A stretch of 64,000 bases of DNA, taken from positions 23,684,001 through 23,748,000 of the forward strand of contig NC_135808.1 in the NCBI RefSeq assembly GCF_964213995.1, in the 5' to 3' direction. Below, in pieces: positions 8,051 through 64,000 of this stretch. Origin of the DNA: Mustelus asterias. Its lineage: Eukaryota. The position numbers and the translations under genes are program-made. The notes beneath the pieces are model-generated. The model made no database searches and was not told where the DNA came from. It saw only the letters and a program-made list of their open reading frames with translations. The first letter of the stretch is position 1; every line of letters begins with the position of its first letter.

Positions 8051-8097
8051 TCAGGAACGCGTGGAGGGGCTGGATGAGGAATCCCCACCATCAGAAG
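8051..8097 (-). CDS. Gene A exon 7 (cytoplasmic tail, stop)
   Basis: TSDGGDSSSSPSTRS*; Ser-rich tail typical of class I. Confidence 0.85.
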
Positions 8098-11000
8098 CTG
8101 TTAAAGGAGGGAGAGACATTAAAAACTGTTCATTATCAGAGAGACAGAGACTGTGCACAAGATATAGATACAGAGAGAAAGAGACACACACACATACATA
8201 CACACACCATTTGGTTGAGTATATTTGACACAGAATGAACAATGATTCACACATTACACAGAGATACAGATGATGTTTGATGATCAGCTTACTATTTGCA
8301 GGATTGTAGTCGCTCTTCCCTCTCCCTGTAAAACAAGGAATGTTCAGTGAGTGACAAGACTGAGAGAAAATCAGAGACAGAGGCTGGAACTCTCGCTCGC
8401 ACTGAGCCCCGACAACACAATTCTGAACCCTCACTCCCACCACAACCCGAGACCCTCACTTTGCCCTTACCAGTGACCCTCTCTCTGTCCTTAGACCCTC
8501 ACCTGAGACCCTCACTCCCACACTGACCTGAGCCCCTCACAGATACCCTGAGCTCCTCATCCAATCTGAGACTCTTCCCACAATTCTCAGACACTCCCTC
8601 TTTATCATGAGCCCCTTATCCTCCCGATCCCAACCCTGGGGCTCTCCCACCCACTCTGTTTCCCCCCCACATCAACGCGAGACCCACAGCCTGAGCCCCC
8701 CCACCCTGGAATACTCTCCCACAATCCCTCCCCCCAGTGAGGAGCTGCTCTTTTCCCTCCAATTCCTACCTTTCTTGTTGTAGATGACGACAGCCACAAT
8801 GATGAGAGCGATGAGCACGAGGACCCCGACCACAATCCCGACAGTAACAGCAACCTGGGAGTGAGACTTTGGTTCTGTTAGAGAGAGAGAATCAGAGAGA
8901 CTGAGTGAATCAGGGAGAGGGAAAAGTGAGAATCAGAGAGAGAGAATGTACAGAGTGGGAGAGAGAGAGGGAGCTAGCATCGAACAATGAGTGAGGGAGT
9001 GGATGAGAGATAGAGAAAGCTGAGAGAGAAAGAATGAGAGAGTGAATCAGAGTGAGAGAGAGAATCAGGAAACACAGGATATACGACACAGAAACTGGCC
9101 ATTCGGCCCTTCCAGTTGATGCTGGTATTTATGTTCCACTTGAGCCTCCTCCCGTCATTCCTCATCTCATTCGACCATTTTAACTCTATTCCCTTCTCCC
9201 TCGTTTGCTCGTCTATCCTAGGGGATAGACGAGCAAATTGTTCAGTTCAGCCACTCCCTGTGGCAGCGAGCTCCACATTCTCATCACTCTTTGGGTGAAG
9301 AGGTTTCTCATGAATTCCCCATTGGGTTTCTTGTATTGATAGCCACTGGATATGCTCTTCCCACAAGAGGAACACTCTCGGTGTGTCCGCTCTATAAAAA
9401 ACCTTTGAGAATTTTAAAGTCCTCGATTAGATCAACCCTCAGCCTTCTGTTTTCCCGAGAGCAGAGACACAGCCGGTCAATCCTTTCCTGAGATGTCCAC
9501 CCACTCATTTCTGGAATCATCTCTGTAAATCTTCTCGACACTCTCTCCCCTGACTCTATATCCTTTGTATGAAATGGTGACCGGAACTGCACACGGTCTT
9601 TAAATGTGGTCTAACCAAGGTTTGGCAATAACGTCCCTGCTTTACAATTCTATCCCTCGAGAAGTAAAACCTGGTTTTCGATTGTATTTTGTTTATTGTC
9701 TAACCTGTAACTCTATGTTTACTGATTGGTGTATTTGTACATCAAGATCCCTTTCTTCCTCAACCCTCCCTATTCATCGTTAACTGAAAAATACCTCACG
9801 TTTATCTGTGCTGAACTTTATTCACCAACTATTTGCTGAAGTTTATTCATGTCCTATTAATTTATGATGTGGAGATGCCGGCGTTGGACTGGGGTAAACA
9901 CAGTAAGAAGTTTAACAACACCAGGTTAAAGTCCAACAGGTTTATTTGGTAGCAAAAGCCACACAAGCTTTCGAGGCTCTGAGCCCCTTCTTCAGGTGAG
10001 TGGGAATTCTGTTCACAAACAGAACTTATAAGACACAGACTCAATTTACATGAATAATGGTTGGAATGCGAATACTTACAACTAATCCAGTCTTTAAGAA
10101 ACAAAACAATGGGAGTGGAGAGAGCATCAAGACAGGCTAAAAAGATGTGTATTGTCTCCAGACAAGACAGCCAGTGAAACTCTGCAGGTCCACGCAACTG
10201 TGGGAGTTACAAATAGTGTGACATAAATTCTGATTCTAGGATCGCATGATAAAGACTCAGGAGGAAAAAAGCAGAAATATTTATGTGAAATAGTGTGACA
10301 TAAACCCAATATCCCGGTTGAGGCCGTCCTTGTGTGTGCGGAACCTGGCTATCAGTTTCTGCTCAGCGACTCTGCGCTGTCGTGTGTCGCGAAGGCCGCC
10401 TTGGAGAACGCTTACCCGAATATCAGAGGCCGAATGCCCGTGACCGCTGAAGTGCTCCCCAACAGGAGGAGAACAGTCTTGCCTGGTGATTGTCGAGCGG
10501 TGTTCATTCATCCGTTGTCGCAGCGTCTGCATAGTTTCCCCAATGTACCATGCCTCGGGACATCCTTTCTTGCAGCGTATCAGGTAGACAACGTTGGCCG
10601 AGTTGCAAGAGTATGTACCGTGTACCTGGTGGATGGTGTTCTCACGTGAGATGATGGCATCTGTGTCAATGATCCGGCACGTCTTGCAGAGGTTGCTGTG
10701 GCAGGGTTGTGTGGTGTCTTGGTCACTGTTCTCCTGAAGGCTGGGTAGTTTGCTGCGGACAATGGTCTGTTTGAGGTTGTGCGGTTGTTTGAAGGCAAGA
10801 AGTGGGGGTGTGGGGATGGCCTTGGCGAGATGTTCGTCTTCATCAATGACATGTTGAAGGCTCCGGAGGAGATGCCCTAGCTTCTCCGCTCCGGGGAAGT
10901 ACTGGACAACGAAGGGTACTCTGTCCACTGTGTCCCGTGTTTGTCTTCTGAGGAGGTCGGTGCGGTTTTTCGCTGTGGCGCGTTGGAACTGTTGATCAAT

Positions 11001-14000: not shown

Positions 14001-17000
14001 ACAACGAAGGGTACTCTGTCCACTGTGTCCCGTGTTTGTCTTCTGAGGAGGTCGGTGCGGTTTTTTGCTGTGGCGCGTTGGAACTGTTGATCAATGAGTC
14101 TAGCGCCATATCCTGTTCTTATGAGGGCATCTTTCAGCGTCTGGAGGTGTCTGTTGCGATCCCGGCCTCGACCGGGATATTGGGTTCATGTCACACTATC
14201 TGTAACCCCCACAGTTGCGTGGACCTGCAGAGTTTCACTGGCTGTCTTGTCTGGAGACAATACACATCTTTTTAGCCTGTCTTGATGCTCTCTCCACTCC
14301 CATTGTTTTGTTTCTTAAAGACTGGATTAGTTGTAAGTATTCGCATTCCAACCATTATTCATGTAAATTGAGTCTGTGTCTTTATAAGTTCTGTTTGTGA
14401 ACAGAATTCCCACTCACCTGAAGAAGGGGCTTAGAGCCTCGAAAGCTTGTGTGGCTTTTGCTACCAAATAAACCTGTTGGACTTTAACCTGGTGTTGTTA
14501 GACTTCTTACTGTGTTTACCCCAGTCCAACGCCGGCATCTCCACATCATAATGTAATATCCCATGTTACACTATATCATGTTGTACTGTAATTTCCCAGG
14601 ATACATCAGGCCCTGTTATACTGTAATATCCCAGGATACACAAACAACAGTCATAGTTTAATATCCCAGGATACTCTGGGCTCTGTCATATTGTAATCCC
14701 AGGATACACTGCTGCCCGTGCAAAATATCCCAGAATGCACTGGGTCTTGTTGTACAATAATATCTCTGGACACACTGGGCTCTGTCATACTCTAATATCC
14801 CAATTAAACCAGGCCCTTGTGCACAGTAACATCCGAGGATACACTTGGCCTTGTCCCGACTGTAATATCGCAGGAAACACTGGGCCCTGACCAACTAAAG
14901 GGTCTCATGATACACAGCGCCCTGTCCCACTGTAATGTCCAATAACGCAATGGGTCCTGTACGCCCAGTTATTTCCCAGGATGCACTGGGCCCGGTCAAG
15001 CTCTAATATCCCAAGGTACACCCGGCCTTATCCATCTTGTAATATCCCAGAAGACACTGGATCCTGTTGCTCTGTAATACAGCAGGATACAGTGGGGTAT
15101 GTTTCATGTCAAATCCATGGACACACAATTATTTCCCTCGAATGGTGGTGCCAAGATATACAACGCATTGAAGATTAATATTTATTTCCCTCTCTGTATC
15201 TTGGGCCTCAGGCTGTCCTGGGCTGACAGCTCAGCACTGACCCTCACTCCTGTGATCCTGGTCTGAGGCTGGGTCCTCTCTCACAGTGAGAAACAGTCTT
15301 ACCGTAAATCACCACCAGTGTCTCATTCATCCCGCTGTGTTCCACCCGACAGGAATACACGGCCTGGTCCTCTGGATCAAACTCTACCCATTTCCGGATC
15401 TGGTAGGTGCTGTCGTGATTGGGTAAGATCCCAGTGGACAGAGTCTCATCAATCACCACTCCGTCTCTCCACAGATTCACCTCGATGGCTTGAGGGTAAA
15501 ACCCGGTGACGGCACAGGACAGCCGGTTAGAATCACCCAGACGGGTAAAGGACACGACAGGGGCAACTGAGAGAGAAAGAAAGAGCAGTCAGGACAGGAA
15601 CCTCGAGATAGAGAGTCCCGGCATCACCCCCTTCACCGACTCTCACCCCCCCTCACTCACCGACTCTCACCCCCCCTCACTCACCGACTCTCACTCCCCC
15701 CTCTTCACCGACTCTCACTCCCCCCTCACTCACCGACTCTCACTCCCCCCTCACTCACCAATTCTCACTCCCCCCTCACTCATCGACTCTCACTCCCCCC
15801 CTCATTCACCGACTCTCACTCCCCCCCTCACTCACCGACTCTCAATTCTCTCTGTCCGTACTCCAGGTATTTTCTCAGCCACTCAACACACTCCACCTCC
15901 AGGTAATGTTTCCATTGCTTGCTATTGGCCATGTTCCTGTCTAAATTGTTTTTGATGATCTCTCCCCAGGGGACCGGGGTCACCCACACCATGTGATCCT
16001 TGTCGAAGCTGATAAAATCATCTCCGTCCCACCCAAACTGGTTGAATCCACTCGTGGTCCCATCATCCCTCAGGTCACAGCCAGTCATCAGCTGGTAGAC
16101 ATGGATCCCTGTGGATCAGAAACACAAACAGACAATCAGAGACAGTCCCAATGGGCGATCCCAACTGCACAGCCAATCAGAGCCAGCCTCAATCCCTCCA
16201 CACATTCACAGCCAATCACATTTCCTGTCACATCTCCAATCGCAGCCAATCAACCTCTGGCCCCCGGTTCCTGATCCACTCTGGGTTTCTCCTCATTCCC
16301 ACCTGGATCCCCGGGTGCTGGGAGAGTGAGCACTCACCTCCTGTCTGGTTGGTGCGGGTCATGAAGCGCGGAATAGTAAGTTTGGAGTACATCTCCTGCT
16401 TCTGTGTGAGAATCTTCTTCCGCTCCCAGGCTGCCCGACCCTCGCTCTCCACCATCCACTGCTCCCGGGGGATCAGCTCCCTCCGATCGCTGTCGTACAC
16501 AACAAACTGGACACCGTCCACATAACCGACAGCCACAAACTCCGGGAAATCCGGGATCGGAGTCATTCCCGTGAAGAAATACCGGAGAGAGTGAGAGCCT
16601 GAAATATAGAGAGAGAGAATTCAGAATAGACACCCGAAAAACACCAACACACTCACACACACACACACACACACAGATCAGGGCATGAACCCCAAAACAC
16701 TGATTCCAAACCGAGAGCAAGACCTCCACCCAGCCTGGCATTGCCTCTCTCACACCCCATCACTCACTGACCCAGGGTTAATGCCCCAGTACCCAGCCTG
16801 GCATTGCCCCTCTCACACCCCATCACTCACTGACCCAGGGTTAATGCCCCAGTACCCAGCCTGGCATTGCCCCTCTAACACCCCATCACTCACTGACCCA
16901 GGGTTAATGCCCCAGTACCCAGCCTGGCATTGCCCCTCTCACACCCCATCACTCACCTGCAGACAGCTCTCCACACAGAAGGACCAGCTCTATCAGTCCA

Positions 17001-17020
17001 ATCATTGCTGCTTCCCTCAT
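8051..17020 (-). CDS. MHC class I heavy chain gene A (UAA-related, non-classical-type), 7 coding exons
   Basis: Exons 17020-16957, 16598-16338, 16108-15836, 15566-15303, 8874-8770, 8325-8293, 8097-8051. All have GT-AG boundaries and phase 1, and the spliced frame is open to TGA at 8051. Confidence 0.93.
8293..8325 (-). CDS. Gene A exon 6 (cytoplasmic, Tyr-containing)
   Basis: GRGKSDYNPAN; 33 bp; AG/GT flanks; paralogous exon at 42455-42487. Confidence 0.85.
8770..8874 (-). CDS. Gene A exon 5 (transmembrane)
   Basis: EPKSHSQVAVTVGIVVGVLVLIALIIVAVVIYNKK; 105 bp; cag/gtagga boundaries. Confidence 0.9.
9085..9860 (-). mobile_element. Degenerate CR1 3' fragment in intron 4, shared by A, B and C
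   Basis: Homologous to about 29755-31140(-) and 40145-41460(+); RRFTEMIPEM. Confidence 0.75.
10281..12960 (-). pseudogene. Penelope RT / GIY-YIG endonuclease ORF with one frameshift near 11985
   Basis: DVSALYTSIP, GTAMGTKFAP and YIDD RT motifs; NVVYLIRC...WYIGET GIY-YIG; N-terminal ORF 11923-12996 leaves frame after NNEEHYR. Confidence 0.9.
14415..14451 (+). ncRNA. Minimal type I hammerhead ribozyme motif in Penelope pLTR
   Basis: CAC-CUGAAGA-stemII-GAAAGCUU-GUG. Copies at about 9962-9998(-), 13057-13093(-), 17298-17334(-), 17380-17416(+), 53122-53158(+). Confidence 0.7.
15303..15566 (-). CDS. Gene A exon 4 (alpha3 Ig C1 domain)
   Basis: LSCAVTGFYP...W...YSCRVEH C1-set motifs; 264 bp. Confidence 0.95.
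15627..15840 (-). repeat. About 25-bp minisatellite in gene A intron 3
   Basis: (CTCACTCACCGACTCTCACTCCCCCC)n, about 8 units. Confidence 0.9.
15836..16108 (-). CDS. Gene A exon 3 (alpha2 domain)
   Basis: GIHVYQLMTGCDL...FGWDGDDFISFD...YLEVECVEWLRKYLEYG; 273 bp; conserved Cys pair. Confidence 0.95.
16338..16598 (-). CDS. Gene A exon 2 (alpha1 domain)
   Basis: GSHSLRYFFTGMTPIPDFPEFVAVGYVDG...RTNQTGG; 261 bp; N86 glycosylation sequon. Confidence 0.95.
16728..16956 (-). repeat. 63-bp tandem repeat at the start of intron 1 (gene A, about 3.6 copies)
   Basis: Unit GTGAGTGATGGGGTGTGAGAGGGGCAATGCCAGGCTGGGTACTGGGGCATTAACCCTGGGTCA. Confidence 0.9.
16957..17020 (-). CDS. Gene A exon 1 (signal peptide)
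   Basis: MREAAMIGLIELVLLCGELSA followed by G|gtgagt donor. Confidence 0.88.
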
Positions 17021-17113
17021 GTTGGAGAAACATTTGGAGGAAACTCTTTTTCGAAGAAAGGCCATTTTCTCAACTCACTCCTTCTGCCTTTTCCTGTTTA
17101 CACTGAGCCGCAA

Positions 17114-17184
17114 TCTGATTGGACACAAAATCGGACTGAACCAATCAGTATAAAGAGATTCAGTGAGTCATCAGTCTCCGGCAG
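17114..17184 (-). promoter_or_regulatory. Gene A proximal X1-X2-Y module and second CCAAT
   Basis: Reverse complement GCCGGAGACTGATGACTCA...CTGATTGG resembles the MHC SXY X1/X2/Y boxes. Confidence 0.7.
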
Positions 17185-20384: not shown

Positions 20385-20801
20385 GAAAAGAATCTTATCA
20401 CTTACTAATATCCCGCGCGACCGTTATACAATGGTCCAAAGGCTATAATCGCCCGCGTGCAACTTCCTGCGAAACCGTTCAGCTTGCTTGGAGGTCAGTT
20501 GTTGTTTGTATATATCTGCAATTGGAGTGCGGTAAACCACTGTTAAGCTATTGCCTGTGTGTGTGTGTGTGTGTGTGTGACATGCCTGGGCATGCTCCTG
20601 CCGGCCCTGCCTGAGACTCCTCCCCCCCTGGTCCAGGTATAAAGGTGACTGCTCCCAACCCCCCTGCCTCAGTCTCGGGACCAGTTCATCAGCATGGGTG
20701 TGCTCCAAGTCTTTTGCTAATAAAAGCCTATTTGTTCTTGCATACAAACTAGTCTTTGCTTGATTGATGGCGCATCAATTTTATTCGCAAAATGTTTTGG
20801 G

Positions 20802-27957: not shown

Positions 27958-27995
27958 TCCAGAAAACGATCAGACATATCGCGCAATATAACTGA

Positions 27996-29450
27996 TGTTA
28001 AATCCTGTGGGAGTGACACAGCTCAGTGACCAACTTCAGGGAAAACACTTGGGAATTCCGACTTCCTTAAGGAAATTGAGCAGCTTAGCAGAGGCTGTCC
28101 AGGGTGAGATGTTTCCGGATGTCTCTTCACCTCAACACCCACAATGTCTCCACCCTCAGACTGTACAGGAGCAGCCGTCTCCAGAAGGCCAGTCTCAAAG
28201 CTCAGTGTTGGATTGGATGAGCTGCTCTTTAGTGACGATACAGCGAGAGACAGACACTGAGCTCACATCCCACCCACCAGATTGTACAGCTAAATCCAGC
28301 AGGAATATCCCAGTTAGAAGGATCAACTCTGCATATTCTGAGCTCCTGCAACAGAATGCTGGACTCTTCACTCCCTCCACAATCTAAACCCCTCAACTCC
28401 AGCCCTGACCATAGACCTTCATTCCAGCCCTGACCACAGACTCTCACTCCAGCGCTGATCTGAGACCCTCACTCCCACCCTGACTCGAGACCCTCATTCA
28501 TGCTCTGACTTGAGACCCTCACTCCCGCCCTGAACCGAAACCCTCATTCCCACACTGGGGTGAGACCCTCAGGTTGGAATTGTCCCGTCCCGCCTGCCAT
28601 GGGAATTGTAGCGGGCAGGGGAGGACAATGCAAAGGTCTGTTGATCTTGGGTGGGATTTTACGGTCCTGGGGTGAGCCCGGCCAGAAACTCCCACGCTCA
28701 ATCGCACTCCGAGGCGAGAGCCTCACTCTCACTCTGACGCAAGGCGCTCACACTGGCCCGAGACCCTCACTCCCACTGGCCCGAGACCCTCACTCCCACT
28801 GGCCTGATACCCTCACTCCCACTGGCCCGAGACCCTCACTCCCACTGGCCTGAGACCCTCACTCCCACTGGCCTGAGACCCTCACTCCTACTGGCCTGAG
28901 ACCCTCACTCCCACTGGCCTGAGACCCTCACTCCCACTGGCCTGAGACCCTCACTCCCACTGGCCCGAGACCCTCACTCCCACTGGCCTGAGACCCTCAC
29001 TCCCACTGGCCTGGGACTCTCACTCCCACTGGCCTGAGACCCTCACTCCCACTGGCCTGGGACCCTCACTCCCACTGGCCTGGGACCCTCACTCCCACAT
29101 TGACCCAAAACCCTTACAGATATCCTGAACTCCTCATTCAATCTGAGACCCTTCCCACAATTCTGTGACACTCTCCCTTTATCATGAGCCCCTCACCCTC
29201 CCTATCCCAACCCTGCGACTCTCCCACCCACTCTGTGACCCCCAGACCAACCTGAGACCCACAGCCTGAGCCACCCCCACCCTGGAATACTCTCCCACAA
29301 TCCCTCCCCCCAGTGAGGAGCTGCTCTTTTCCCTCCAATTCCTACCTTTCTTGTTGTCGATGACGACAGCCACAATGATGAGAGCGATGAGCACGAGGAC
29401 CCCGACCACAATCCCGACAGTAACAGCAACCTGGGAGCGAGACTTTGGTT
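27996..29450 (-). pseudogene. MHC class I gene fragment C: orphan TM exon (29346-29450) plus 3'UTR copy (about 27996-28325)
   Basis: TM exon encodes the same peptide as gene B exon 5. The 3'UTR matches about 7690-8020. Exons 1-4, 6 and 7 were not found nearby on this strand. Confidence 0.8.
28750..29098 (+). repeat. 23-bp minisatellite in the intron 5 homologue of fragment C
   Basis: (GAGACCCTCACTCCCACTGGCCT)n; degenerate versions at about 8425-8545 and 42275-42352. Confidence 0.92.
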
Positions 29451-35075: not shown

Positions 35076-35135
35076 CACATTTCTTTACCACAATTAAACA
35101 CAAAGTTTGTTTCCCAATCAGCTTTGTGTCTATTC

Positions 35136-35204
35136 TGCCGGAGACTAATGACTCACACAATGTTTTTATTCTGATTGGTGCAATTGTATTTTAAGTCCAA
35201 TCAG
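35136..35204 (+). promoter_or_regulatory. Gene B X1-X2-Y module and second CCAAT
   Basis: GCCGGAGACTAATGACTCA...CTGATTGG (35171-35178)...CCAATCAG. Confidence 0.7.
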
Positions 35205-35292: not shown

Positions 35293-35356
35293 ATGAGGGA
35301 AGCAGCAATGATTGGACTGATAGAGCTGGTCCTTCTGTGTGGAGAGGTGTCTGCAG
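35293..35356 (+). CDS. Gene B exon 1 (signal peptide)
   Basis: MREAAMIGLIELVLLCGEVSA then G|gtgagt. Confidence 0.88.
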
Positions 35357-38300
35357 GTGAGTGATGGGGTGTGAGAGGGGCAATGCCAGGCTGGGTACTG
35401 GGGCATTAACCCTGGTTAAGAAGTCTCAGAAGACCAGGTTAAAGTCCAACAGGTTTTGTTTGGTGGCACAAACCACTAGCTTTCGGAGTGCTGCCCCTTC
35501 ATCAGGTGAGTCTGGGTCAGAGTGATGGGGTGTGAGAGGGGCAATGCCAGACTGGGTACTGGAGCATTAACCCTGGGTCAGTGAGTGATGGGGTGTGAGA
35601 GGGGCAATGCCAGGCTGGGTACTGGAGCATTAACCCTGGGTCAGTGAGTGATGGGGTGTGAGAGGGGCAATGCCAGGCTGGGTACTGGGGCATTAACCCT
35701 GGGTCAGTGAGTGATGGGGTGTGAGAGGGGCAATGTCAGGCTGGGTACTGGGTTTCTTAAAGGAGGGAAACTGGGATGTGAGGGAACTGAGAGCAGGGAT
35801 GTGGGATTGGAGATCGAGGAGAGAGACAGAGAGAGGGAGAGGTTGTAGGATTACAGGAACAGGAGGGGAATAATCTAAACTCCATTTTCTGCATCCCCAC
35901 AAAAATCCATCTCAATTTTGAAAGCTGCAATTGATCCACAACAGCTGCAGCTTCTTGCGGGAAAGAGGATTTCAGATTTCCACAACCATTTTGGTGAGGA
36001 GGTTCCTGGCTAAAGACAGCAGGCAGCAACCAGGAAAGAGAGAGTGAGTGTAGATGAATAGCAGAGACTGGTTAAAGGCTTCAGCAACAGTGCACGATTA
36101 GAGAGAGAGAGAGCAGCAGAAGTATAGTGTCATAGAATCCCTGCAGTGCAAAAGAAGGCTATTTAGCCCATCGAATCTGCACTGAGAACAATCCCACCTG
36201 GGCCCTATTCCCGTAACCCCATGTATTCATCCTACTAATCATCTTGACACTAAGGGGTAATTTAGCATGGCCCATCAACCGAACCCGCACATCTTTTGAA
36301 TGTGGGAAGAAACCGGAGAACCTGGAGGAAACCCACGCGGACACGGGGAGAACGTACAAACTCCACGCAGGCAGTCACCCGAGGCCGGAATTGAACCCGG
36401 GTCCCTGGTGCTATGAGGCAACAGTGCTAAACACTCTGCCACCGTGCTACCCATATAATCAGACCCAGTAAAAGACTCCCAGCAGCAATGCATGAATAGC
36501 GAGAGAGTGTGTGTAAAGGAATAGCACAGACCGAGTTAGGGACTCCAGCAGCAATGCACAATTGGAGAGTGATGGGGAGGGAGGAGAAATCAGACCTGGC
36601 TGGAGACTCCAGCATTTCTACAATTCCTTAGCTGATGTCCTGAGGAAGATTCTGGATGACTGGAGTCTTTTCAGCCTAAGTGACTTCAACAATGTGTTGG
36701 GACAGACAGTAATCATGGCCATTGTGCCTCGGTCATCACGGTGTGGGCAAGATCATCGATAATTATATTTGACCGAATGCATGGGACTTCTGTGCTGAGG
36801 ACTCTCAGGGGAACTGTATTGTGGAAGCACATCACTGCACCAATACCTCTGGTGGGCCTGTTGTGCGAGTCAGACAGTTATATCCAGCTTCTAAGCACCT
36901 TCTGGAGCTTTGCCATCTGAATGAACTCTCCATCACCAACACTTACCCCCAGGGCAAACATTGCCTCAAAGTATCGTGGCATCGCTCAAGGTGTAACCCT
37001 GGCACCAACTAGACCTGCGTAATCAAGAGGAGACACAATCTGCCCAGCTTTCTCCACACCCACACCAAGCACAGAGCAGATTGTGATAGTGCCCACTGTC
37101 CTGTCCGTCGCAGTGTGAAACTGCATCCCTGAATAATTCACAGTCCCAAACACCATGGCCTGTCGCGTGTTAATGGGTTCGTACCCTGATGTCCCTCTCT
37201 GTGTGGGTGCTGATGGTTAGGGGTTCAAACCCTGATATCTGTGTGTCAGCGTTTTTAGGGTGCATATCCTGAATTTCTCTCCCTCTCTGTTTTTCAGGCT
37301 CTCACTCTCTGCGGTATTTCCTCTCGGGAATGACCCTGGTCCCCGGTTTCCCAGAGTTTGTAGCTGTCGGTTATGTGGACGATGTCCAGTTTGTTGTGTA
37401 CGACAGTGATCGGAGGGAACTAATCCCCCGGGAGCAGTGGATGGTGGAGAGCGAGGGGCTTGAGTCCTGGGAGCGGAAGAAGATGCTTGTACAGGAGCAG
37501 GAACGGTATTCCAAAGCCGATATTCCGCTCTTCATGTCTCGGGCCAACCAGTCAGGAGGTGAGTGCTCACTCTCCCACAACTCTGGGATCAAGTTGGTCA
37601 ATGTGGCTCCTCCCAGTGTAGTTGGCATTGATTGGCTGTGTGTGTGGTGCTCCCAAGTGACACTGTCTCTGATTGGTTGTTTGTGTTTCTGATCCACAGG
37701 GATCCATGTCTACCAGACGATGACTGGCTGTGACCTGAGGGATGATGGGACCACGAGTGGATTCAACCAGTTTGGGTGGGACGGACAAGATTTTATCAGC
37801 TTTGACAAGGATCACATGGTGTGGGTGACCCCGATCACATGGGGAGAGATCATCAAAAACAATTTGGACAGGGACATAGCCAACAGCAAGGGATGGAAAA
37901 GTTACCTAGAGGGAGAGTGTATCGAGTGGCTGAAGAAATATCTGGAGTATGGACAGGGAGAACTGAGAGTTGGTAAGTGAGAGGCGAGATGCCCGGGACT
38001 CTCTATCTCAAGGTTCCTGTACTGACTCCTCTTTCTTTCTCTCTCAGTTGCCCCCGTCGTGTCCTTTACCCGCCTGGGTGATTCTAACCAGCTGTCCTGT
38101 GCCGTCACCGGGTTTTACCCTCAAGCCATCGAGGTGAATCTGTGGAGAGACGGAGTGGTGATTGATGAGACTCTGTCCAGTGGGATCTTACCCAATCACG
38201 ACAGCACCTACCAGATCCGGAAATGGGTAGAGTTTGATCCAGAGGACCAGGCCGAGTATTCCTGTCGGGTGGAACACAGCGGGATGAAGGAGACACTGGT

Positions 38301-41300
38301 GGTGATTTACGGTAAGACTGTTTCTCACTGCTAGAGAGGACACAGCCTCAGGCCAGGATCACAAGAGGGAGGGTCAGTGCTGAGCCTGAGACCCAGGATA
38401 CAGAGAATGGGAAATAAATATTAATCTTCAATACTTTATTTATCATGGCGCTACCTTTAGAGGACAGTAATTGTGTGTCCAGGGATTTAATGTGAAATGT
38501 GCCCCTATTATTTGGCTACTAATTCAAACTCTTTGCAAACATTTCAGTTTAGTCGGACAAAGGACAGAAGTCGAGTCTATTCCTCTTAATAATCTATTTA
38601 ACACTTTAAGTACCAAACTCAAACTTACAACAGTTGCAACATTTTAACTCTTTTTGTGGACATTAATTCTTTAACTGAACATTAATTCTAATTCCTTAAC
38701 TGCAAACAGATATTCTAATCCTTTAACTGGAAATAGATATGACCTGGTTTAGAGCAAAATGTCTGTTCCCGATGTAGAACTGTCCTCAGCGTCTTTCTCT
38801 GAAGATGTTCTGCAGGGTACACTTCTTGCGATGGTTGATCTCTGGAGTTATTGCTGGAAACAAAGGGCTGACGTGTGCCTTTACCCCCAAAACTGTTCTC
38901 ACTTTCCAGAAAGTTCTGTAACACCCAGCCAATGGTGTAACCGGGAACTGATCATGTTGCTCGACCAAGCCAATGAATTACTTGTAACCGATTCCACAAT
39001 GCTCACTCAAGCCTGCATGCAGGACACATAGCTTATCCTCTGTCGGTGCCATCAGGTCGAACTCAAAGTAAACAACTTCCCATATTTGGTCAACACAGGA
39101 AGCGGAACAAAGAAACCTACAGCACAGGAACAGGCCCTTCAACCCTCCAAGCCTGCACTGACCATGCTGCCCAACTTAACTAAAACCCCCTACCCTTCTG
39201 GGGACCATATCCCTCTATTCACAAAGAACAGTGTCAGGTCACAGTTCACCGGGCAGACCACGTCAAGAACAGCTTTACGACCTGCATCTGTTTTTAAATA
39301 TAAGTTGACCAAAAATCTCAGCATGCTTAACCCTCAGCCAGAATCCCACTTATCGCCATTATACTTGTTAAAATCATTATTGCAGTCATTCTTTATCTGT
39401 CTGCACCCCATTGTATCCTGGGATATTACAGGTGAAAGGGCACAGAGTATCCTGGGATATTACGGTGCAACAGAATCCAGTGTATCCTGGGAAATTATAG
39501 TACGTCACACTGCAGTGTATCCTGGGAAATTACAGGAGGGGTAGGGCCCAGAGTATCCTGGGACATTACAGTGCAACACAATCCAGTCGATCCTGGTGTA
39601 TTACAGTGCACCAGGATCCAGTGACTCGTGAGATATTTCAGGAGGGATGGGGCTTGGTGTATCCTGGAATATTACAGCATGACAGGGCCCAGTGCATCCT
39701 GGGAAATAACAGGAAGCACAGGAACCATTGTATCGATGGATATTACAGTAAGACAGGGCTGTGTATCATGAGCTATTATAGTTGGTCAGGGTGCAGTATA
39801 TCTGGGATATTACAGCCTGACAGGACATGGAGTATCCTGGGATGTTACAGTATGACAGGATGCAGTGTATCCTGGGATATTACTGGATGACGGGACTCAA
39901 TGTCTGTTGGAATTTTAGAGAAGGGACAGGGCCTGGTGTGCTTGGGATTTCAGAGGAGGGAGAGGACCTGGTGTATTGGGATATTGCAGGATGGCAGGGC
40001 CCAGTGTCTGCTGTGATATTACAACCTGAGAGGACCCAGTGTGCCCTGGGATGTTATATTAGGACAAGGCCCAGTGTATCCTGGGATATTGCAGTAGGAT
40101 AGGACCCAGTGCATCCTGGGAGTTTACTTCAGTCAGCTTCAGATCAGAGTTCAGAAAAATAACTCCTTCTATTGGAGAGAATTCATGAAAATCTAGAAAT
40201 CAAAAAATATAACAATGAATAGTCAGCATGGATATTGAAATGGAAAATCTTGCTTTTCTCTACTGAGTGGATTTTTTGAGGATGTAACAGAGGGAGGAGA
40301 CAATGTAATAGATATAATTTAATATGATTTTTCAAATGTAATCGATAACATAACTCATGGTAGATTAATGAATCGGGTCAAAGAATGTGGATTTAGACGA
40401 TAAGTGACAGAATGGATTGCTCGTTGACTTTGAGACAGAAAGCAGAGAGTGTGAGTAAAGGGAGTTATTCAGAGTGACGGAAGGTGTTCCACAAGGATCA
40501 GTGCTGGGATTACTGCTCTTCATGCTTTACACTCACTGATTTGGACATTGGAATCAAAATAAAATTGACCAATTTGCAGATGACACCAAATTGGGGGAAT
40601 TATTTAATACTAAGGAGAACTTCAAGAAATTAATAGGACGTTAATAAACTTGTCGAATGAGCAAATAATTGGTGAATGGAGTTCAGCACAGATGAATAAG
40701 ACGTAGTTTTCTATTAAGTGACCTCCCGATACATCCTTATTACGAGGAAGGTGCAGGTCTGGATGAGGTTGAGGAGCAAAGGTGAACAAATACACCAATT
40801 AGACACAGGTTAGACAAGGCCATAAACAAACCAAACGGAAAACCAGGTTTCATTTCTTGATGGATAGGATTGTCAAATATGGACGTTATTCGTAAACCTG
40901 TATGAAACCTACATTATAGCACATTTAGAGTACCATGTGCAGTTCCAGTCACCATCTCATACAAAGGATATAGAGTCAGGGGAGAGAGTGTAGAGAAGAT
41001 TTACAGAGATGATTCCAGAAATGAGTGGGTGGACATCTCAGGAAAGGATTGACCGGCTGGGTCTCTGCTCTCGGGAAAACAGAAGGCTGAGAGTTGATCT
41101 AATCGAGGTCTTTAAATTTATGAAAGATGTTTTATAGATCAGACACATGGAGAATGTTTCCTCTTGTGGAAAGATCATAACAAGGTCATCAATACAAGAC
41201 AGTCACCAAAAAATCCAATGGGCAATTCAGGAGAAACCTCTTTACCCAGAGTGGTGAGAATGTGAGCTCACTACCACAGGGAGTGGCTGAACTGAACAGT

Positions 41301-42698
41301 ATAGTTTAAGGGGAAGATAGACAAGCAAATGAGGGAGAAGGGAGTAGAGTTAAAATGGTTGTTTTAGATGAGGAAAGATGGGAGGAGGCTCAAGTGGAAC
41401 ATAAATACCAGCATCAACTGGATGGGCTGAATGGCTGGTTTCTGTGTTGTATATCCTGTGTTTCCTGATTCTCTCTCTGTGATTCATTCTGTCTCATTTT
41501 TCTTTCCCTTTTTATGGGCGGCACAGTAACACAGGGGTTAGCACTGCTACCTCACAGCGCCAGGGACACAGGTTCGATTCCCGGCTTTGTCACTGTCTGG
41601 ATGGAGTTTGCATGTTCTCTCCGTGTCTGCGTGTGTTTCCTTCGGGTGCTCCGGTTTCTTCCCACAGTTCAAAAATCCACTGGTTAGGTGGATTGGCCGT
41701 GCTAAATTGCCCCTTAGTGTCAGGGGGGTTTGCAGGTTAAATACATGTTACAGGGATAGGGCATAGATGGGATTGTTGTCAGTGCAGACTTGATGAGCCG
41801 AATGGCCTCCGTCTGCACTGTAGGGATTCTATGATTCACTCTCAGATTCTCTGCCTCTCTCATTCTCTTTCTCGCTCTCTGACTCTCACTTTTCCCTCTC
41901 CCTGATTCACTCAGTCTCTCTGATTCTCTCTCTCTAACAGAACCAAAGTCTCGCTCCCAGGTTGCTGTTACTGTCGGGATTGTGGTTGGGGTCCTCGTGC
42001 TCATCGCTCTCATCATTGTGGCTGTCGTCATCGACAACAAGAAAGGTAGGAATTGGGGGGAAAAGAGCAGCTTCTCACTGGGGGGAGGGATTGTGGGAGA
42101 GTATTCCAGGGTGGGGGTGGCTCAGGCTGTGGGTCTCGGGTTGCTGTGGGGGGGGAAACAGAGTGGGTGGGAGAGTCGCAGGGTTGGGATCGGGAGGGTA
42201 AGGGGCTCAAGATAAAGAGGGAGTGTCTGTGAATTGTGGGAAGGGTCTCAGATTGCAGATGGAGTTCAGGGTATCTGTGAGGGTCTCAGGTCAGAGTAAG
42301 GGTCCAGGGTCAGGGTGGGAGTGAGGGTCCAGGGTCAGGGTGGGAGTGAGGGATCAGAATTGTGTTGTCGGGGCTCAGTGCGAGTGAGAGTTCCAGCCTC
42401 TGTCTCTGATTTTCTCTCAGTCTCGTCACTCACTGAACATTCCTTGTTTCACAGGGAGAGGGAAGAGCGACTACAGTCCTACAAAGAGTAAGCTGATCAT
42501 CAAACATCATCTGTATCTCTGTGTAATGTGTGAATCATTGTTCATTCTGTGTATGTGTGTGTGTCTCTTTCTCTCTGTATCTATATCTTGTGCACAGTCT
42601 CTATCTCTCTGATAATGAACAGTTTTTAAAACCTCTCCTTCTTTTTAACAGCTTCTGATGGTAGGAATTCCTCATCCTGCTCCTCATCGCGTTCCTGA
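35293..42698 (+). CDS. MHC class I heavy chain gene B (close paralogue of gene A), 7 coding exons
   Basis: Exons 35293-35356, 37298-37558, 37700-37972, 38048-38311, 41941-42045, 42455-42487, 42652-42698. Exon lengths match gene A, GT-AG boundaries, open frame. Confidence 0.93.
35357..35752 (+). repeat. 63-bp intron 1 tandem repeat (gene B, about 5 copies)
   Basis: Same unit; gene D has about 2 copies at 53454-53573. Confidence 0.9.
35417..35511 (-). mobile_element. Penelope pLTR remnant in gene B intron 1 repeat
   Basis: CCAGGTTAAAGTCCAACAGG...AGCTTTCGGAG...TTCATCAGGTGAG. Confidence 0.75.
36130..36452 (-). mobile_element. HE1-like SINE
   Basis: tRNA-like head and CR1-like tail. Confidence 0.8.
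36640..37170 (+). mobile_element. Degenerate LINE endonuclease fragment (RTE-like)
   Basis: LSDFNNVLG and LLELCHLNELSITNTYPQGKHCLKVSWH resemble APE-domain motifs. Confidence 0.55.
37298..37558 (+). CDS. Gene B exon 2 (alpha1)
   Basis: GSHSLRYFLSGMTLVPGFPEFVAVGYVDD...RANQSGG. Confidence 0.95.
37700..37972 (+). CDS. Gene B exon 3 (alpha2)
   Basis: GIHVYQTMTGCDLRDDG...YLEGECIEWLKKYLEYG. Confidence 0.95.
38048..38311 (+). CDS. Gene B exon 4 (alpha3)
   Basis: LSCAVTGFYP...YSCRVEH. Confidence 0.95.
39405..40120 (+). repeat. Degenerate approximately 34-bp satellite in intron 4
   Basis: CAGTGTATCCTGGGATATTACAG core; inverted copies at 14550-15095 and 31137-31265. Confidence 0.8.
40145..41460 (+). 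mobile_element. Degenerate CR1 fragment in gene B intron 4
   Basis: TTTGCAGATGACACCAAA (FADDTK) and other CR1 motifs. Confidence 0.75.
41515..41833 (+). mobile_element. HE1-like SINE
   Basis: GGGCGGCAC...GGTTCGATTCCC...GGGATTCTATG. Confidence 0.82.
41941..42045 (+). CDS. Gene B exon 5 (transmembrane)
   Basis: EPKSRSQVAVTVGIVVGVLVLIALIIVAVVIDNKK. Confidence 0.9.
42455..42487 (+). CDS. Gene B exon 6 (cytoplasmic)
   Basis: GRGKSDYSPTK; acag/gtaagc boundaries. Confidence 0.85.
42652..42698 (+). CDS. Gene B exon 7 (cytoplasmic tail, stop)
   Basis: TSDGRNSSSCSSSRS*. Confidence 0.85.
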
Positions 42699-53217: not shown

Positions 53218-53228
53218 TGTGTCTATTC

Positions 53229-53297
53229 TGCCAGAGACTGATGACTCACTGAATCTCTTTATTCTGATTGGACACAAAATAGGACTGAACCAATCAG
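53229..53297 (+). promoter_or_regulatory. Gene D proximal X1-X2-Y module and second CCAAT
   Basis: GCCAGAGACTGATGACTCA...CTGATTGG...CCAATCAG. Confidence 0.7.
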
Positions 53298-53389: not shown

Positions 53390-53453
53390 ATGAGGGAAGC
53401 AGCAATGATTGGACTGATAGTGCTGGTCCTTCTGTGTGGAGAGGTGTCTGCAG
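53390..53453 (+). CDS. Gene D exon 1 (signal peptide)
   Basis: MREAAMIGLIVLVLLCGEVSA then G|gtgagt. Confidence 0.85.
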
Positions 53454-59400: not shown

Positions 59401-62400
59401 TTGGTTTGACGTTTTAAGTTTCCTTTTGACTTTGTTTTTGGTTCGGGCTGTTCCCCCCTTCCTTTTGGGGAGCCGCCCCTTTTACTTTGTCCCTAAGTTA
59501 ATTTGAGTTCGTTTACTTGATTGGTGCCGAAAGAGCTATCTTATGGATACCTCTCTGGAGAGGGAGCATGCGGTGTCCACGGGCGCGATTGACGCCTTCC
59601 GCGACCGCTGGGCGCCGCAGGGGCTGGGGTGTATTATCGACGCCGATAATCACCTTTTGGTTTGACGTTTTAAGTTTCCTTTCGACTTTGTTTTTGGTTC
59701 GGGCTGTTCCCCCCTTCCTTTTGGGGAGCCGCCCCTTTTACTTTGTCCCTAAGTTAATTTGAGTTCGTTTATTACGTTGGTACCCGAAAGAGCTACCTTA
59801 TGGATACCCATCTGGCCACGAACTCCTTTAAGTGAACAGTCCAAAGTTGTTCCCAGCTTCTCTCTGTCCACATTTCCCCTGTTTCTGTGGGAGATTTGAG
59901 GGGGTCCAGTTGGGACACGGAGTCCCTGATCAGGGTAGAGTGAGCGATGTGGACAGGAGCTGACAGATTTTGAGGAGGCAGGAGGGAGATCGAGGAGCAT
60001 TGGAAGCCTCGGTCTTTGTTGGGGTAGGTGCGTGGGGATTGTGTTAAATGTGTTTCCAGAAGGTGAAGTTGCATGAGATCAGAGGTGAGCTGGCAAGGTG
60101 GATACAAAACTGGCTCGATAAAAGAAGACAGAAGGTAGCAGTGGAAGGGTGCGTTTCTGAATGGAGGGCTGTGACAAGTGGCATTCCTCAGGGATCAGTG
60201 CTGGAATCTTTGCTGTTTGTAATACATATAAATGATTTGGAGGAAAATGTAACGGGATTGATTAGTAAGGTTGCGGACGACACAAAGGTTGGTGGATTTG
60301 CGGATAGCGATGAGGACCATCAGAGGATACAGCAGGATATAGATTAGTTGAAGACTTGGGCGGAGAGGTGGCAGATGGAGTTTAATCCGGACAAATATGA
60401 GGTAATGCATTTTGGAAGGTCTAATACAGATAGGAAATATACAGTGAATGGCAGAACCCTTAAGAGTATTGATAGGCAAAGGGATCTGGCTGTACAGGTA
60501 CACAGAACACTGAAAGTGACAATGCAGGTGGAGAAGGTAGTCAAGAAGACATACGGCATGCTTGCCTTCATCAGCCGGGGTATTGAGTTTAAAAATTGGC
60601 AAGTCATGTTGCAGCTTTATAGAACCTTAGTTAGGCCGCACTTGGAATATAGAGTTCAATTCTGATCGCCACACTATCAGAAGGATGTAGAGGCTTTGGA
60701 GAGGGTACACAAAAGATTTACCAGGATGTTACCTGGTATGGAGGGAGTTAGCTATGAGGAGAGGTTGGAGAAACTTCGTTTGTTCTCACTGGAGCGACGG
60801 AGGTTGAGGGGAGACGTGATAGAAGTCTACAAGATTCTGAGAGGCAATGGCAGAGTGGATAGTCAGAAGTTTTTTCCCAGGGTGGAAGAGTCAATGACTG
60901 GGGAGCATAGGTTTAAGGTGTGAGGGGCAAGGTTTAAAGGAGATGGCCAAGGCAGATTTTTTACACAGAGAGTAGTGGGTGCTTGGAACCCGTTGCTGGG
61001 GGAGGTAGTGGAAGTGGATACAGTAGTGACTTTTAAGGGGCGTCTGGACAAATCCATGAATAGAATGGGAATAGAGGGATATGGTCCCCGGAAGGTAGGG
61101 GGTTTTAGTTAAGTCAGGCAGCACGGTCGGTGCAGGCTTGGAGGGCCGAAAGGCCAGTTCCTGTGCTGTAATTTTCTTTGTTCTTTGTTCTCTGGGTGTT
61201 GATGTTTTGGGGTTCACACCTGATGTCTCTCTCTCTGGGCGTTGGTGTTTTGGGGTTCACACCCTGATGTCTCTCTCTCTCTCTGGGTGTTGGTGTTTTG
61301 GGGTTCACACCCTGATGTCTCTCTCTCTCTGGGTGTTGGTGTTTTGGGGTTCACACCCTGATGTCTCTCTCTCTGGGTGTTGGTGTTTTGGGGTTCACAC
61401 CCTGATGTCTCTCTCTCTCTGGGTGTTGGTGTTTTGGGGTTCACACCCTGGTTCTCTCTCTCTCTGTGTTTCAGGTTCTCACTCTCTCCGATATTTGGCC
61501 ACTGTTATGACTCCGGTCTCTGGTCTCCCAGAGTTTGTGATTGTCGGGTTTGTGGACGATGTGCAGTTTTTTATGTATGACAGTGACTTGAAGGAGTTGG
61601 CCGGCCGTGGGCAGTGGTATATGGAGAACAAGAGGCCCAATTTCTGGATGCGGAAGACAGTGCTTGCACGGGAGAAGGAGAAACATTTTAAATTCTACAT
61701 TCAGAGCCTCATGTCCCGGACCAACCAGTCAGACGGTGAGTCCCTGCGCTCCCACCATCTGTCCTTCGAGAGAGGTTGGAAGCAGAATGAGATCCGAGAA
61801 CCAGGGTCAGGGGAAAAGTTTCTCCATCGCTTCGAGCATGGAGCGGCAGCAATGGGGAGCACCCTTTAAATACAAAGAAATATTCTTCCTAATTAGCTGA
61901 TTGTACAAGGTTTGGTTTATAATTTAAGTTTATTTATTGGTGTCACAAGCAGGCTTACATTAACACTGTAATGAAGTTACTGTGAAAACCCCCTCGTTGC
62001 CACACTCCGGCAGCTGTTCGATACACTGAGGGAGAGGATAAATATGTGGGGTTACGGGAATATGGTGCAGATTGTGGTCGGCGCAGACTCGATGGGCCAA
62101 ATGGCCAATGCACCTAACCAGCACGTCTTTCTGACTGTGGGAGGAAACCAGAGCACCCGGAGGCAGACACGGGGAAATCGTACAAACTCCACGCAGACAG
62201 TGACCCGAGGCCGGAATCAAACCCAGGCCCCTGACGCTGTGAGGCAGCAGTGCTAACCACTGTGCCACCGTGGGGGCACAGATTTCAGGTTTTGGGAAGG
62301 AGATGCAGGAAAATCCTCACTACAAAGTGCTTGGCAGACACCTGGGATTGTTGGCCTGTGAGGGCGATGGAAGCAGGGACGATCAATGACTTCAAAAGGA

Positions 62401-63443
62401 AATTGAATCGGACATCAAAGTAATAGATAGTCAGCACTGTGGGATAAGCGGGGGGGGGGATGACACTGACCAGTTTGCAATATAGAGAGCCAGCATGGAC
62501 TCAAAGGAATGAATAAATGACGACGATAATGATTGGGAATTTGGTGGATGAAGGTCTCCTTAAAATATTTCAATTGGGAGTCTAGTAGTGTGGAGTTGCA
62601 GACAAATTAAATCTTAGTCCGAGACCTGTAAATTTACACAGCTGCTGCTTTGGGTTTCCTTCAATTAATAGACATGGTTCAGGGGGGTCCTTTAAATATA
62701 GGTTGGGTTCGCGGATCATTTACATGGGGTGGCACAGTGGTTAGCACTGCTGCCTCACAGCGCCAGAGTTCAATTCCAGCCTCAGGTCTGTGTGGAGTTT
62801 GTACATTCTCCTCGTGTCTGCGTGGGTTTCCTCCGGGTGCTCCCGTTTCCTCCCACAGACCAAGGGTGTGCAGGTTAGGTTGATTGGCCATTCTAAATTG
62901 ACCCGAGTGTCAGGGAATTAGCAGGATAAATATGTGGGGGTACGGGAATAGGGCCTGGGTGGGATTGTGGCCGGTGCAGACTCGATGGGCTGAATGGCCT
63001 CCTTCTGCACTGTAGGGATTCTATGACATGTTAAGGAGTCTTATAAATACACATATTGCGGTCCAGGGGTCCATTAACACTGGCTTCCGAGGTGATATCT
63101 GATTAACTGTGTGGTGGGGTCACTCAGTCGAACTGAGCCTCATTGGTCGTATACGTCTGATTGACAGGGATCCACTTCTTCCAGATGATAACTGGCTGTG
63201 ACCTGGCTGATGATTCGATGACGAGTGGCTTCTCACAGTTCGGCTGGGACGGGCAAGATTTCATGACATTTGATAAAGATGAGCAGGTATGGCTGACACC
63301 GGTACCGTGGGGTGAGAACACCATGACGTGGTGGCAACAAATCAGGGCCTGGGATAATCAGCAGTGGAAGTTTTACCTGGAGCAGGAGTGCATTGAATGG
63401 CTGAAGATCTACTTGGAATATGGACAGCAACAGCTGGGAGTCG
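53390..63443 (+). CDS. MHC class I heavy chain gene D (divergent non-classical-type), exons 1-3; runs off the window
   Basis: Exons 53390-53453, 61475-61735, 63168-63443 splice in frame. The window ends in intron 3, just before the expected alpha3 acceptor. Linking exon 1 across the 8 kb intron is inferred. Confidence 0.85.
54572..54912 (-). mobile_element. HE1-like SINE
   Basis: Same family. Confidence 0.78.
55470..57320 (+). mobile_element. Degenerate CR1 LINE
   Basis: KSPGPDGIYP, DFTKAFDKVPH, WQMEFNPDKC; many frameshifts. Confidence 0.9.
57707..58400. mobile_element. Two HE1-like SINEs tail to tail (57707-58015 plus; 58122-58400 minus)
   Basis: Same family, opposite orientations. Confidence 0.78.
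59281..59807 (+). mobile_element. Two tandem 256-bp 3' ends of a Tx1-like (L1 clade) element
   Basis: SLEREHAVSTGAIDAFRDRWAPQG resembles the Tx1 ORF2 C-terminus; TA(T/C)CTTATGGATAC occurs three times; inverted 3'UTR relative at about 58970-59115. Confidence 0.65.
60060..61180 (+). mobile_element. CR1 3' fragment
   Basis: GIPQGSVL, ADDTKVGG, RPHLEY. Confidence 0.9.
61190..61465 (+). repeat. About 44-48-bp tandem repeat before the gene D exon 2 acceptor
   Basis: ((CT)nGGGTGTTGGTGTTTTGGGGTTCACACCCTGATGT), about 6 copies. Confidence 0.9.
61475..61735 (+). CDS. Gene D exon 2 (alpha1)
   Basis: GSHSLRYLATVMTPVSGLPEFVIVGFVDD...RTNQSDG; 261 bp. Confidence 0.93.
61925..63027. mobile_element. SINEs in gene D intron 2 (61925-62272 minus; 62727-63027 plus)
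   Basis: A/B boxes and SINE body. Confidence 0.78.
63168..63443 (+). CDS. Gene D exon 3 (alpha2)
   Basis: GIHFFQMITGCDLADD...YLEQECIEWLKIYLEYG; 276 bp, one codon longer than A/B. Confidence 0.93.
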
Positions 63444-63958
63444 GTGAGTGAGGGGGGAGCGAGAGTCGGTGAGTGAGGGGGGGAGTGAGAGTCGGTGAGT
63501 GAGGGGGGGAGTGAGAGTCGGTGAGTGAGGGGGGAGTGAGAGTCGGTGAGTGAGGGGGGAGTGAGAGTCGGTGAGTGAGGGGGGAGTGAGAGTCGGTGAG
63601 TGAGGGGGGAGTGAGAGTCGGTGAGTGAGGGGGGAGTGAGAGTCGGTGAGTGAGGGGGGAGTGAGAGTCGGTGAGTGAGGGGGGGGGTGAGAATCGGTGA
63701 GTGAGGGGGGAGTGAGAGTTGGTGAGTGAGGGGGGGAGTGGGAGTCGGTGAGTGTGGGGGGGAGTGAGAGTCGGTGAGTGTGGGGGGGAGTGAGAGTCGG
63801 TGAGTGAGGGGGGAGTGAGAGTCGGTGAGTGAAGGGGGAGTGAGAGTCAGTGAGTGAGGGGGGAGTGAGAGTCGGTGAGTGAGGGGGGAGTGAGAGTCGG
63901 TGAGTGAGGGGGGGGAGTGAGAGTATGTGAGCGAGGGGGGAGTGAGAGTCGGTGAAGG
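63438..63958 (+). repeat. About 25-bp minisatellite in gene D intron 3
   Basis: (GAGAGTCGGTGAGTGAGGGGGGAGT)n, about 20 units. Confidence 0.95.
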
Positions 63959-64000
63959 GGGTGATGCCAGGACTCTCTATCTCGAGGTTCCTGTACTGAC

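Follow-up and report, generated by a model that had tools for sequence, protein, structure and literature searches.

Two MHC class I genes on a chromosome of the shark Mustelus asterias lack several of the residues that anchor peptides in classical class I molecules, and the question raised by this locus is whether such genes form a young, undescribed subfamily or belong to a lineage already known from sharks. An earlier note on this DNA favored the former, proposing an expanded non-classical subfamily derived from shark UAA. The window analyzed here is the whole stretch of 64,000 nucleotides (contig NC_135808.1, positions 23,684,001 to 23,748,000 of the forward strand), which contains three genes for class I heavy chains (A, B, and C) and one fragment. 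These three genes almost certainly belong to UBA, a described lineage of shark non-classical class I genes. UBA is an old offshoot of classical UAA and occupies a cluster of its own between C4 and RXRB. The best overall explanation, to which we give a probability of roughly 0.9, is that A, B, and C are UBA members in a cluster that has grown to about 55 loci.

Genes A and B have the same architecture: seven exons of 64, 261, 273, 264, 105, 33, and 47 nt, an open frame of 1047 nt encoding 348 amino acids, and GT..AG boundaries at all six introns, which bears out the earlier description of two complete seven-exon frames. Gene A lies on the minus strand, from 17020 to 8051. Its leader exon (exon 1, 16957..17020) carries the ATG and a GT donor; exon 2 (16338..16598) encodes alpha1, with Y7, A59, K63, R84, and a glycan sequon at its end; and exon 3 (15836..16108) encodes alpha2, with I143, N146, L147, Y159, W167, Y171, and both cysteines. 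The open alpha3 exon (exon 4, 15303..15566) encodes an immunoglobulin C1-set domain. A 6.4-kb intron holding retroelement pieces precedes the transmembrane exon (exon 5, 8770..8874), and the cytoplasmic tail is encoded by exon 6 (8293..8325, open and with splice sites) and exon 7 (8051..8097, open to the stop codon). Gene B runs along the plus strand from 35293 to 42698. Its leader exon (35293..35356) is followed by alpha1 (exon 2, 37298..37558; Y7, S59, K63, R84), alpha2 (exon 3, 37700..37972; I143, N146, L147, Y159, W167, Y171), and alpha3 (exon 4, 38048..38311), and then by the transmembrane exon (exon 5, 41941..42045) and two cytoplasmic exons (exon 6, 42455..42487, with splice sites; exon 7, 42652..42698, with the stop codon), all open in frame.

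Gene C, which the earlier note did not mention, starts at 53390 on the plus strand with an open leader exon (53390..53453). A divergent alpha1 exon (61475..61735; F59, K63) and a divergent alpha2 exon that is one codon longer (63168..63443; T143, W146, W147) close the window, and exons 4-7 lie within 10.2 kb past its end (L037, L038). The whole frame of gene C is open and encodes 349 amino acids. The fragment is an orphan transmembrane exon on the minus strand (29346..29450), open and flanked by AG and GT, with intron-4 homology upstream and a piece of 3' UTR at 27991-28337; it is a piece of a gene, and no alpha1-3 or cytoplasmic exons were found beside it in the window. All three genes are already present in the automatic annotation: the RefSeq prediction XP_078073669.1 equals gene A over all 348 amino acids, and parts of XP_078075253.1 (1069 amino acids, three genes fused) match exons 1-5 of both B and C without a mismatch. 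The two entries bear only automatic names ("F10 alpha chain-like" and "uncharacterized") and are no independent evidence for the gene models.

The class I identity of the genes is secure. Pfam matches of the window genes are far above chance (MHC_I, E 1e-45; C1-set, E 6e-15), and both disulfide cysteine pairs are present, as is the glycan sequon that follows alpha1. A predicted structure (mean pLDDT 75, pTM 0.54) has the class I fold and speaks to that fold only; the best match in the fold search was nurse-shark UAA (6LUP), at 59% identity. Upstream of the ATG by 120-165 bases, the three genes carry the same X1/X2-like and Y-box-like motifs (gene A, 17141..17184, minus strand; gene B, 35135..35178, plus strand; gene C, 53228..53271, plus strand), which by their consensus may form an SXY module. 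Genes A and B resemble classical shark UAA (6LUP) in fold, in the seven-exon layout, in R84, Y7, Y159, W167, and Y171, and in these SXY-like promoter motifs. UAA-type proteins in the residue table, however, mostly keep Y59 and T143/K146/W147, and genes A and B do not.

The lineage of the genes was assessed by maximum likelihood. A protein search returned 38 proteins of 132 candidates, and the accessions used included AAC60347 from nurse shark and AAC60348 from horn shark, presumably the sequence named Hefr-20. The tree of alpha1-3 (42 rows, LG+G4) samples the 55 loci of the cluster by 18 representatives plus L010, with broken loci and near-identical copies left out. Genes A, B, and C fall into a 29-row clade, supported at 100/96, with 16 other cluster genes, AAC60347, AAC60348, and eight further proteins from cat, bamboo, epaulette, horn, and saw sharks. 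This clade is nested among UAA-type proteins, with the next node at 95/80. It is recovered from alpha1 and alpha2 together (100/99) and from alpha3 alone (90/97, with the saw-shark row outside). The UBA label rests on a paper for one tree sequence only, AAC60347, which is called Gcirratum_UBA in the supplement of Verissimo 2023 (PMC10751288); AAC60348 does not occur in that supplement. Across alpha1, alpha2, and alpha3, genes A and B are 64-76, 67-70, and 79-86% identical to the two UBA-clade references, and 38-52, 62-65, and 59-71% identical to three UAA-like proteins.

Other shark lineages fit less well. According to PMC10751288, UDA and UEA are, like genes A-C, non-classical and MHC-linked, and UEA is also multicopy; unlike genes A-C, they lie in a separate cluster. 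The tree rows do not include references for UCA, UEA, UFA, or UGA; the UCA, UFA, and UGA reference rows were compared by eye, with no UEA row among them. Identity with UCA or UEA was set aside on sequence identity, position, and these reference rows. Affinity to UDA, UEA, UFA, UGA, or UCA was likewise not found: the position differs, a UDA-like sequence of this genome (L060) falls outside the UBA clade, and the other references were judged by eye. L060 is the one sequence fetched from among 18 alpha2 matches of 30-39% identity at 31.0-33.6 Mb, and it was called UDA-like by eye.

Gene order gives the same answer as the tree. A UBA-only multicopy cluster, flanked by c4 and rxrb and away from both the UDA/UEA cluster and the class Ia region, is described in PMC10751288. 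On the contig studied here, C4-like genes, which encode thioester proteins, lie at 20.3 and 21.0 Mb and are followed by the cluster at 21.6-24.75 Mb and by an RXR exon at 26.1 Mb. Beyond these come, at 31.0-33.6 Mb, 18 class I alpha2 exons that are only distantly similar, and then a UAA-2-like gene (35.07 Mb), PSMB8-/PSMB9-like exons (41.3-41.7 Mb), and UAA-like genes (41.6 and 42.4 Mb). The catshark table of the same source lists C4B at 30.2, C4C at 30.9, MHC-Ib at 32.1-32.4, and RXRB at 34.8 Mb, and onward MHC-Ib at 38.4-41.1, "MHC-Ia like" at 43.7, PSMB8 at 51.7, and MHC-Ia at 51.9-53.0 Mb. The position of the cluster is that published for UBA, and the gene orders of catshark and white shark are matched. 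PSMB8, at 41.3 Mb, is about 17 Mb from the window at 23.7 Mb, so the tight linkage of classical UAA to PSMB8/9 is absent; the UAA-like genes of this genome adjoin PSMB8/9, whereas genes A-C lie in the cluster between the C4-like genes and RXR.

Because the tree and the gene order both place A, B, and C within UBA, a non-classical lineage already described, the young and undescribed subfamily of the earlier note gives way. The phylogeny returned one UBA clade of 29 of the 42 rows in place of a separate branch, and lineage, UAA origin, expansion, and position are all in print, with the genes themselves already automatic predictions. The remainder of that proposal (non-classical, UAA-derived, expanded, and altered in the groove) agrees with the position of the clade among UAA-type sequences and with the 55 loci, as well as with a review that recognizes two expanded class Ib families in sharks, UBA (Bartl 1997) and UEA, and derives UBA from UAA (PMC12562908). 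Genes A, B, and C therefore add members to a known lineage. The literature within reach (most subscription papers lay outside it) yielded no paper on the class I genes of this species or on a UBA ligand, and shark UBA does not come up in the available portions of PMC6523485 and PMC6795676. Also potentially relevant, both to the residue pattern and to copy numbers, are Bartl 1997, Almeida 2020, and Almeida 2021.

In classical class I molecules, Y7, Y59, Y159, and Y171 hold the peptide amino terminus. At the F pocket, R/Y84, T143, K146, and W147 bind the main chain of the peptide (PMC8236899). Positions were numbered as in HLA-A2 by way of AAC60347, using the alignment published in PMC10751288. 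Genes A and B then have Y7, A59 (A) or S59 (B), K63, R84, F123, I143, N146, L147, Y159, W167, and Y171, which include all the residues read earlier by manual alignment. Alignment of nurse-shark UAA (6LUP) with A and B is ungapped over 143-147, so the loss of T143/K146/W147 is real, and a proper alignment does not restore these residues. Misalignment as the source of the lost anchors was ruled out by 6LUP and the published alignments. Four of the eight anchors (Y7, Y59, R84, T143, K146, W147, Y159, Y171) are missing from A and B, which are thus not classical by this measure.

Across the 41 loci of the cluster with open alpha1 and alpha2, the two ends of the groove behave differently. K63 is found in all 41 and Y59 in none, Y7 in 34, and R84 in 26; at the other positions, T143 is found in 10, I143 in 31, K146 in 12, W147 in 14, Y159 in 33, W167 in 41, and Y171 in 35. 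T143, K146, and W147 occur together in only two loci, and the N146/L147 pattern of A and B with I143 occurs in eight. Among the other-shark UBA-clade proteins in the residue table, ten of ten lack Y59 and carry K63, and nine of ten have I143; L147 is found in one catshark protein, and N146 in the horn-shark reference. The nurse-shark UBA reference AAC60347 (F59, K63, I143, R146) shares the non-Y59, K63, and I143 residues with A and B, but it carries R146/W147 where they carry N146/L147. Loss of Y59 together with K63, being present in 41 of 41 loci and in other sharks, marks the lineage as a whole and affects the amino-terminal end of the groove; changes in the F pocket differ between paralogs. 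The altered F pocket of the earlier note accordingly stands for A and B, with I143/N146/L147, as one of several patterns (8/41), whereas the change common to the lineage is at the opposite end. The K63/Y59 pattern may already have been described in Bartl 1997 or Almeida 2021.

According to PMC10751288, shark class Ib lineages still have no known function. For the UBA cluster, the mechanism proposed here begins with recent tandem and block duplication, which would have produced about 55 loci with roughly a dozen groove types. Each gene would give rise to a beta2-microglobulin-bound surface protein that presents, to receptors of the T-cell or NK type, a narrow range of ligands characteristic of its paralog. 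The ligands would most likely be peptides with atypical ends, and the terminal clamp would be partly dismantled: the amino-terminal end of the groove has Y7, Y159, W167, and Y171 in most copies, with K63 and never Y59, and the carboxy-terminal pocket varies per paralog, with T143, K146, and W147 lost in A and B. Uniformity of the alpha3 domain and tail would be maintained by gene conversion or the exchange of exons. With terminal residues and pockets specific to each paralog and a uniform alpha3 and tail, diversity would be spread across paralogs. Narrow, paralog-specific ligands, most likely peptides without the full classical terminal clamps, are a proposition to which we give about an even chance.

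Class I-like molecules such as CD1, MR1, and H2-M3 provide comparisons for non-peptide or chemically blocked ligands, and the UBA groove could similarly hold a lipid, a metabolite, or an acidic or N-capped peptide. This alternative is possible although unlikely. It would account for the loss of Y59 and the fixation of K63 in 41 of 41 loci and in all ten other-shark proteins, for R or Q at position 62 in 12 of 12 cluster types, and for the three carboxy-terminal anchors lost in A and B. Yet most loci retain Y7, Y159, W167, and Y171 (34, 33, 41, and 35 of 41), two loci keep T143, K146, and W147 together, and the polar groove differs greatly from one paralog to the next. The fold search also matches MR1, but at 38% identity versus 59% for shark UAA; these model-based matches reflect general class I likeness and are no functional evidence.

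The size of the family was determined by searches for alpha2 (83 matches of 89 candidates) and alpha1 (62 of 83), which yielded 55 class I loci in 3.1 Mb (21.6-24.75 Mb), all of which were examined. In 30 of them alpha1, alpha2, and alpha3 are open with splice sites; in six more alpha1-2 are open and alpha3 lies outside the fetched stretch; and the other 19 are broken or partial, with an alpha1, alpha2, or alpha3 exon broken or missing. The intact genes whose alpha2 measures 273 nt number 28 and form 12 types at 95%. A set of genes recurs at a spacing of about 410 kb, with copies that are mostly 95-100% identical, and such repeated blocks point to recent expansion. Over 3.3-4.5 kb the identity of some block copies reaches 99.9-100%, and others differ by 1-5%; assembly duplicates could be among the near-identical ones. 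The tables of PMC10751288 label two MHC-Ib gene models in the C4-RXRB interval of white shark and three in that of catshark, counts that are not directly comparable with our 55 loci because annotated models can fuse or miss copies; with unlabelled and very long models in the same interval, the comparison of copy numbers is unfair. The large recent expansion is possibly the sole new point, and of the features of the cluster only the growth in copy number and the alpha3 exons appear to be young.

Most UBA copies might instead have arisen neutrally from the instability of a region rich in repeats, with few working genes and a count perhaps inflated by assembly. The 19 broken or partial loci, the orphan exon inside the window, and the blocks that are 99.9-100% identical are what such a history would leave, and we consider it improbable, a little more so than a non-peptide ligand. 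Other block copies do differ by 1-5%, genes A, B, and C retain all splice sites and promoter motifs, and selection can be detected. Pairwise dN/dS was computed for 12 representatives drawn from those 28 intact genes of 273-nt alpha2 length; gene C and L043 were excluded for their extra codon. The ratio is 0.38 (0.28-0.52) at 141 other alpha1/alpha2 codons and 0.38 (0.19-0.72) at 87 alpha3 codons; purifying selection acts outside the groove. At 35 codons that we take to be groove positions, it is 1.37, with a bootstrap range (0.94-2.15) that spans 1 and with non-independent pairs.

Splicing of B-like transcripts also argues against neutrality. Four of 22 sequencing runs were aligned to 37200-38400, all as assembled contigs without tissue labels; together with a single assembly, these are the data against which low polymorphism or restricted tissue expression, general traits of class Ib genes, would be read. 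None of the runs matching gene B has an RNA label on record, which says nothing either way; the RNA nature of run X1 is a guess, and its organism code differs from that of the best DNA matches. Depth is zero in the wholly intronic bins of this interval in runs X1, X2, and X3, and contigs cover exons 2, 3, and 4 of gene B, with X1 showing exon joints at both predicted GT..AG sites of the stretch. The leader exon is joined to exon 2 in contigs of X1 and X2, where loose contig ends match it, and the transmembrane exon is matched by loose ends in X1, X2, and X3. An X1 contig differs from gene B alpha1 at 6 of 262 letters, and a second differs at 2 of 117 letters across a stretch that includes codons 146-147. 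From the intron-free depth of the three runs and the joints in X1, B-like transcripts are spliced in an organism or individual other than that of this genome, and the exact window loci lie outside that evidence.

The domains of these genes have had different histories. Synonymous divergence is 0.27 in alpha1/alpha2 versus 0.067 in alpha3, and gene C is 71% identical to gene B in the DNA of alpha1 and 98% in that of alpha3. In domain trees, gene C alpha1/alpha2 branch below horn, nurse, and cat shark sequences, and its alpha3 groups with its neighbors. This pairing of old alpha1/alpha2 with a neighbor-like alpha3 suggests that alpha3 has been homogenized within the species. A young, species-specific subfamily split from this shark's own classical UAA is very improbable: although the UBA clade is nested among UAA-type sequences, the copies are 95-100% identical in repeated blocks, and all 17 cluster alpha3 exons group together (98/89), forcing the cluster genes with this genome's UAA-like L058 and L055 is rejected (lnL 87.8 lower, p-AU 5.5e-10), the clade includes several other shark orders sharing non-Y59, K63, and mostly I143, and the cluster has the published UBA position, so that the trees and the AU test refute such an origin unless the UBA reference is mislabelled.

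The UBA cluster clearly exemplifies concerted evolution by domain, and does so in the oldest group of vertebrates to have an MHC. Its many intact paralogs, resolved in one cluster with an invariant K63, variable F pockets, and a uniform alpha3, are a concrete panel for ligand elution. A bolder view, which we regard as doubtful, is that about 55 loci and about a dozen groove types with a uniform alpha3 and tail, diversifying at the groove upon old alpha1/alpha2 platforms (that of gene C predating the horn/nurse shark split in the tree), might make up a germline-encoded rather than allelic panel of receptors, in which Y59 loss and K63 would favor amino-terminally capped, extended, or acidic ligands.

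The flanking genes of the UBA cluster were named with varying certainty. In the gene at 20.3 Mb, the thioester exon has its best match in C4 (E 9e-16 vs 8e-10) and another exon has its best match in C3 (3e-10 vs 1e-4). Scores for the RXR exon at 26.1 Mb (85.4 vs 83.2 bits) do not separate alpha from beta, and the paralog, RXRB, was assigned from position. The PSMB9-like call was made by eye, and the identity of PSMB8 is clear for the single exon examined. In white shark the order is reversed, and C4A adjoins the class Ia region (PMC10751288). A third C4-like (thioester) gene is found on the Mustelus asterias contig at 44.6 Mb.

Most of the remaining peptide anchors are gone from one subtype of MHC class I loci in the UBA cluster (L006, L010, L022, L034, L041, and L053), whose members carry I7, L84, L159, and F or S at position 171 (HLA-A2 numbering). 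This anchor loss leaves the subtype with a more hydrophobic groove than any other in the set and makes it the strongest candidate for binding something other than a peptide.

The classical anchors Y59 and T143/K146/W147 are present in L057, the UAA-like gene closest to PSMB8/9 (41.59 Mb on contig C8 of this genome, G000:C8). Late in alpha1, L057 has a frameshift in this assembly, so that either the allele is null or the assembly is wrong at this point. Two further genes of the class Ia region, L058 and L059 (42.40 and 43.41 Mb), have in common an alpha1 exon that is divergent and of an unusual type. In L058, Y59 is missing, yet the alpha2 is classical; in L059, the divergent alpha1 is followed by an alpha2 that is broken and an alpha3 that is UAA-2-like. 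Because PSMB8-like and PSMB9-like exons each occur in two copies (L070-L073, 41.28-41.68 Mb), the class Ia region appears to be duplicated in this assembly. Distant from both clusters, a solitary UAA-like alpha1 and alpha2 pair (L055, 27.97 Mb) has Y59, S143, K146, W147, and S167, and no alpha3 for it was found in the 8.8 kb of sequence examined.

Within the window, the promoters of gene C (53264-53297, forward strand) and gene A (17115-17148, reverse strand) differ by 18 bases in opposite orientation, namely the stretch that separates a Y-box-like motif from its own inverted copy. The difference is a micro-inversion between short inverted repeats. The predicted protein XP_078075253.1 (P0043; 1069 aa) is a fusion of gene B, gene C, and the next gene, L039, made by automatic annotation.

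Intron 4 of gene A holds a reverse-transcriptase element (9855-14558), presumably Penelope-like, that contains a direct repeat of 1.2 kb (99%) as well as an inverted copy of 370 bp (98%); its insertion is recent. Sequence related to this element also occurs at 25130-25400, 31300-32870, and 52370-53225. A retroviral env-like frame (18988-20423, reverse strand; Pfam TLV_coat, E 7e-18; 325 aa stop to stop), located between genes A and B and preceded upstream by a separate, second short frame, appears to be what is left of a disrupted endogenous envelope. The LTR-retrotransposon pol remnant at 22663-24315 (forward strand) encodes reverse transcriptase, RNase H, and integrase in a frame interrupted by a stop. 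Toward the window end, at 57715-58400 and 59281-59815, are an inverted pair of short interspersed elements (70% identical) and a 256-bp tandem duplication (96%).
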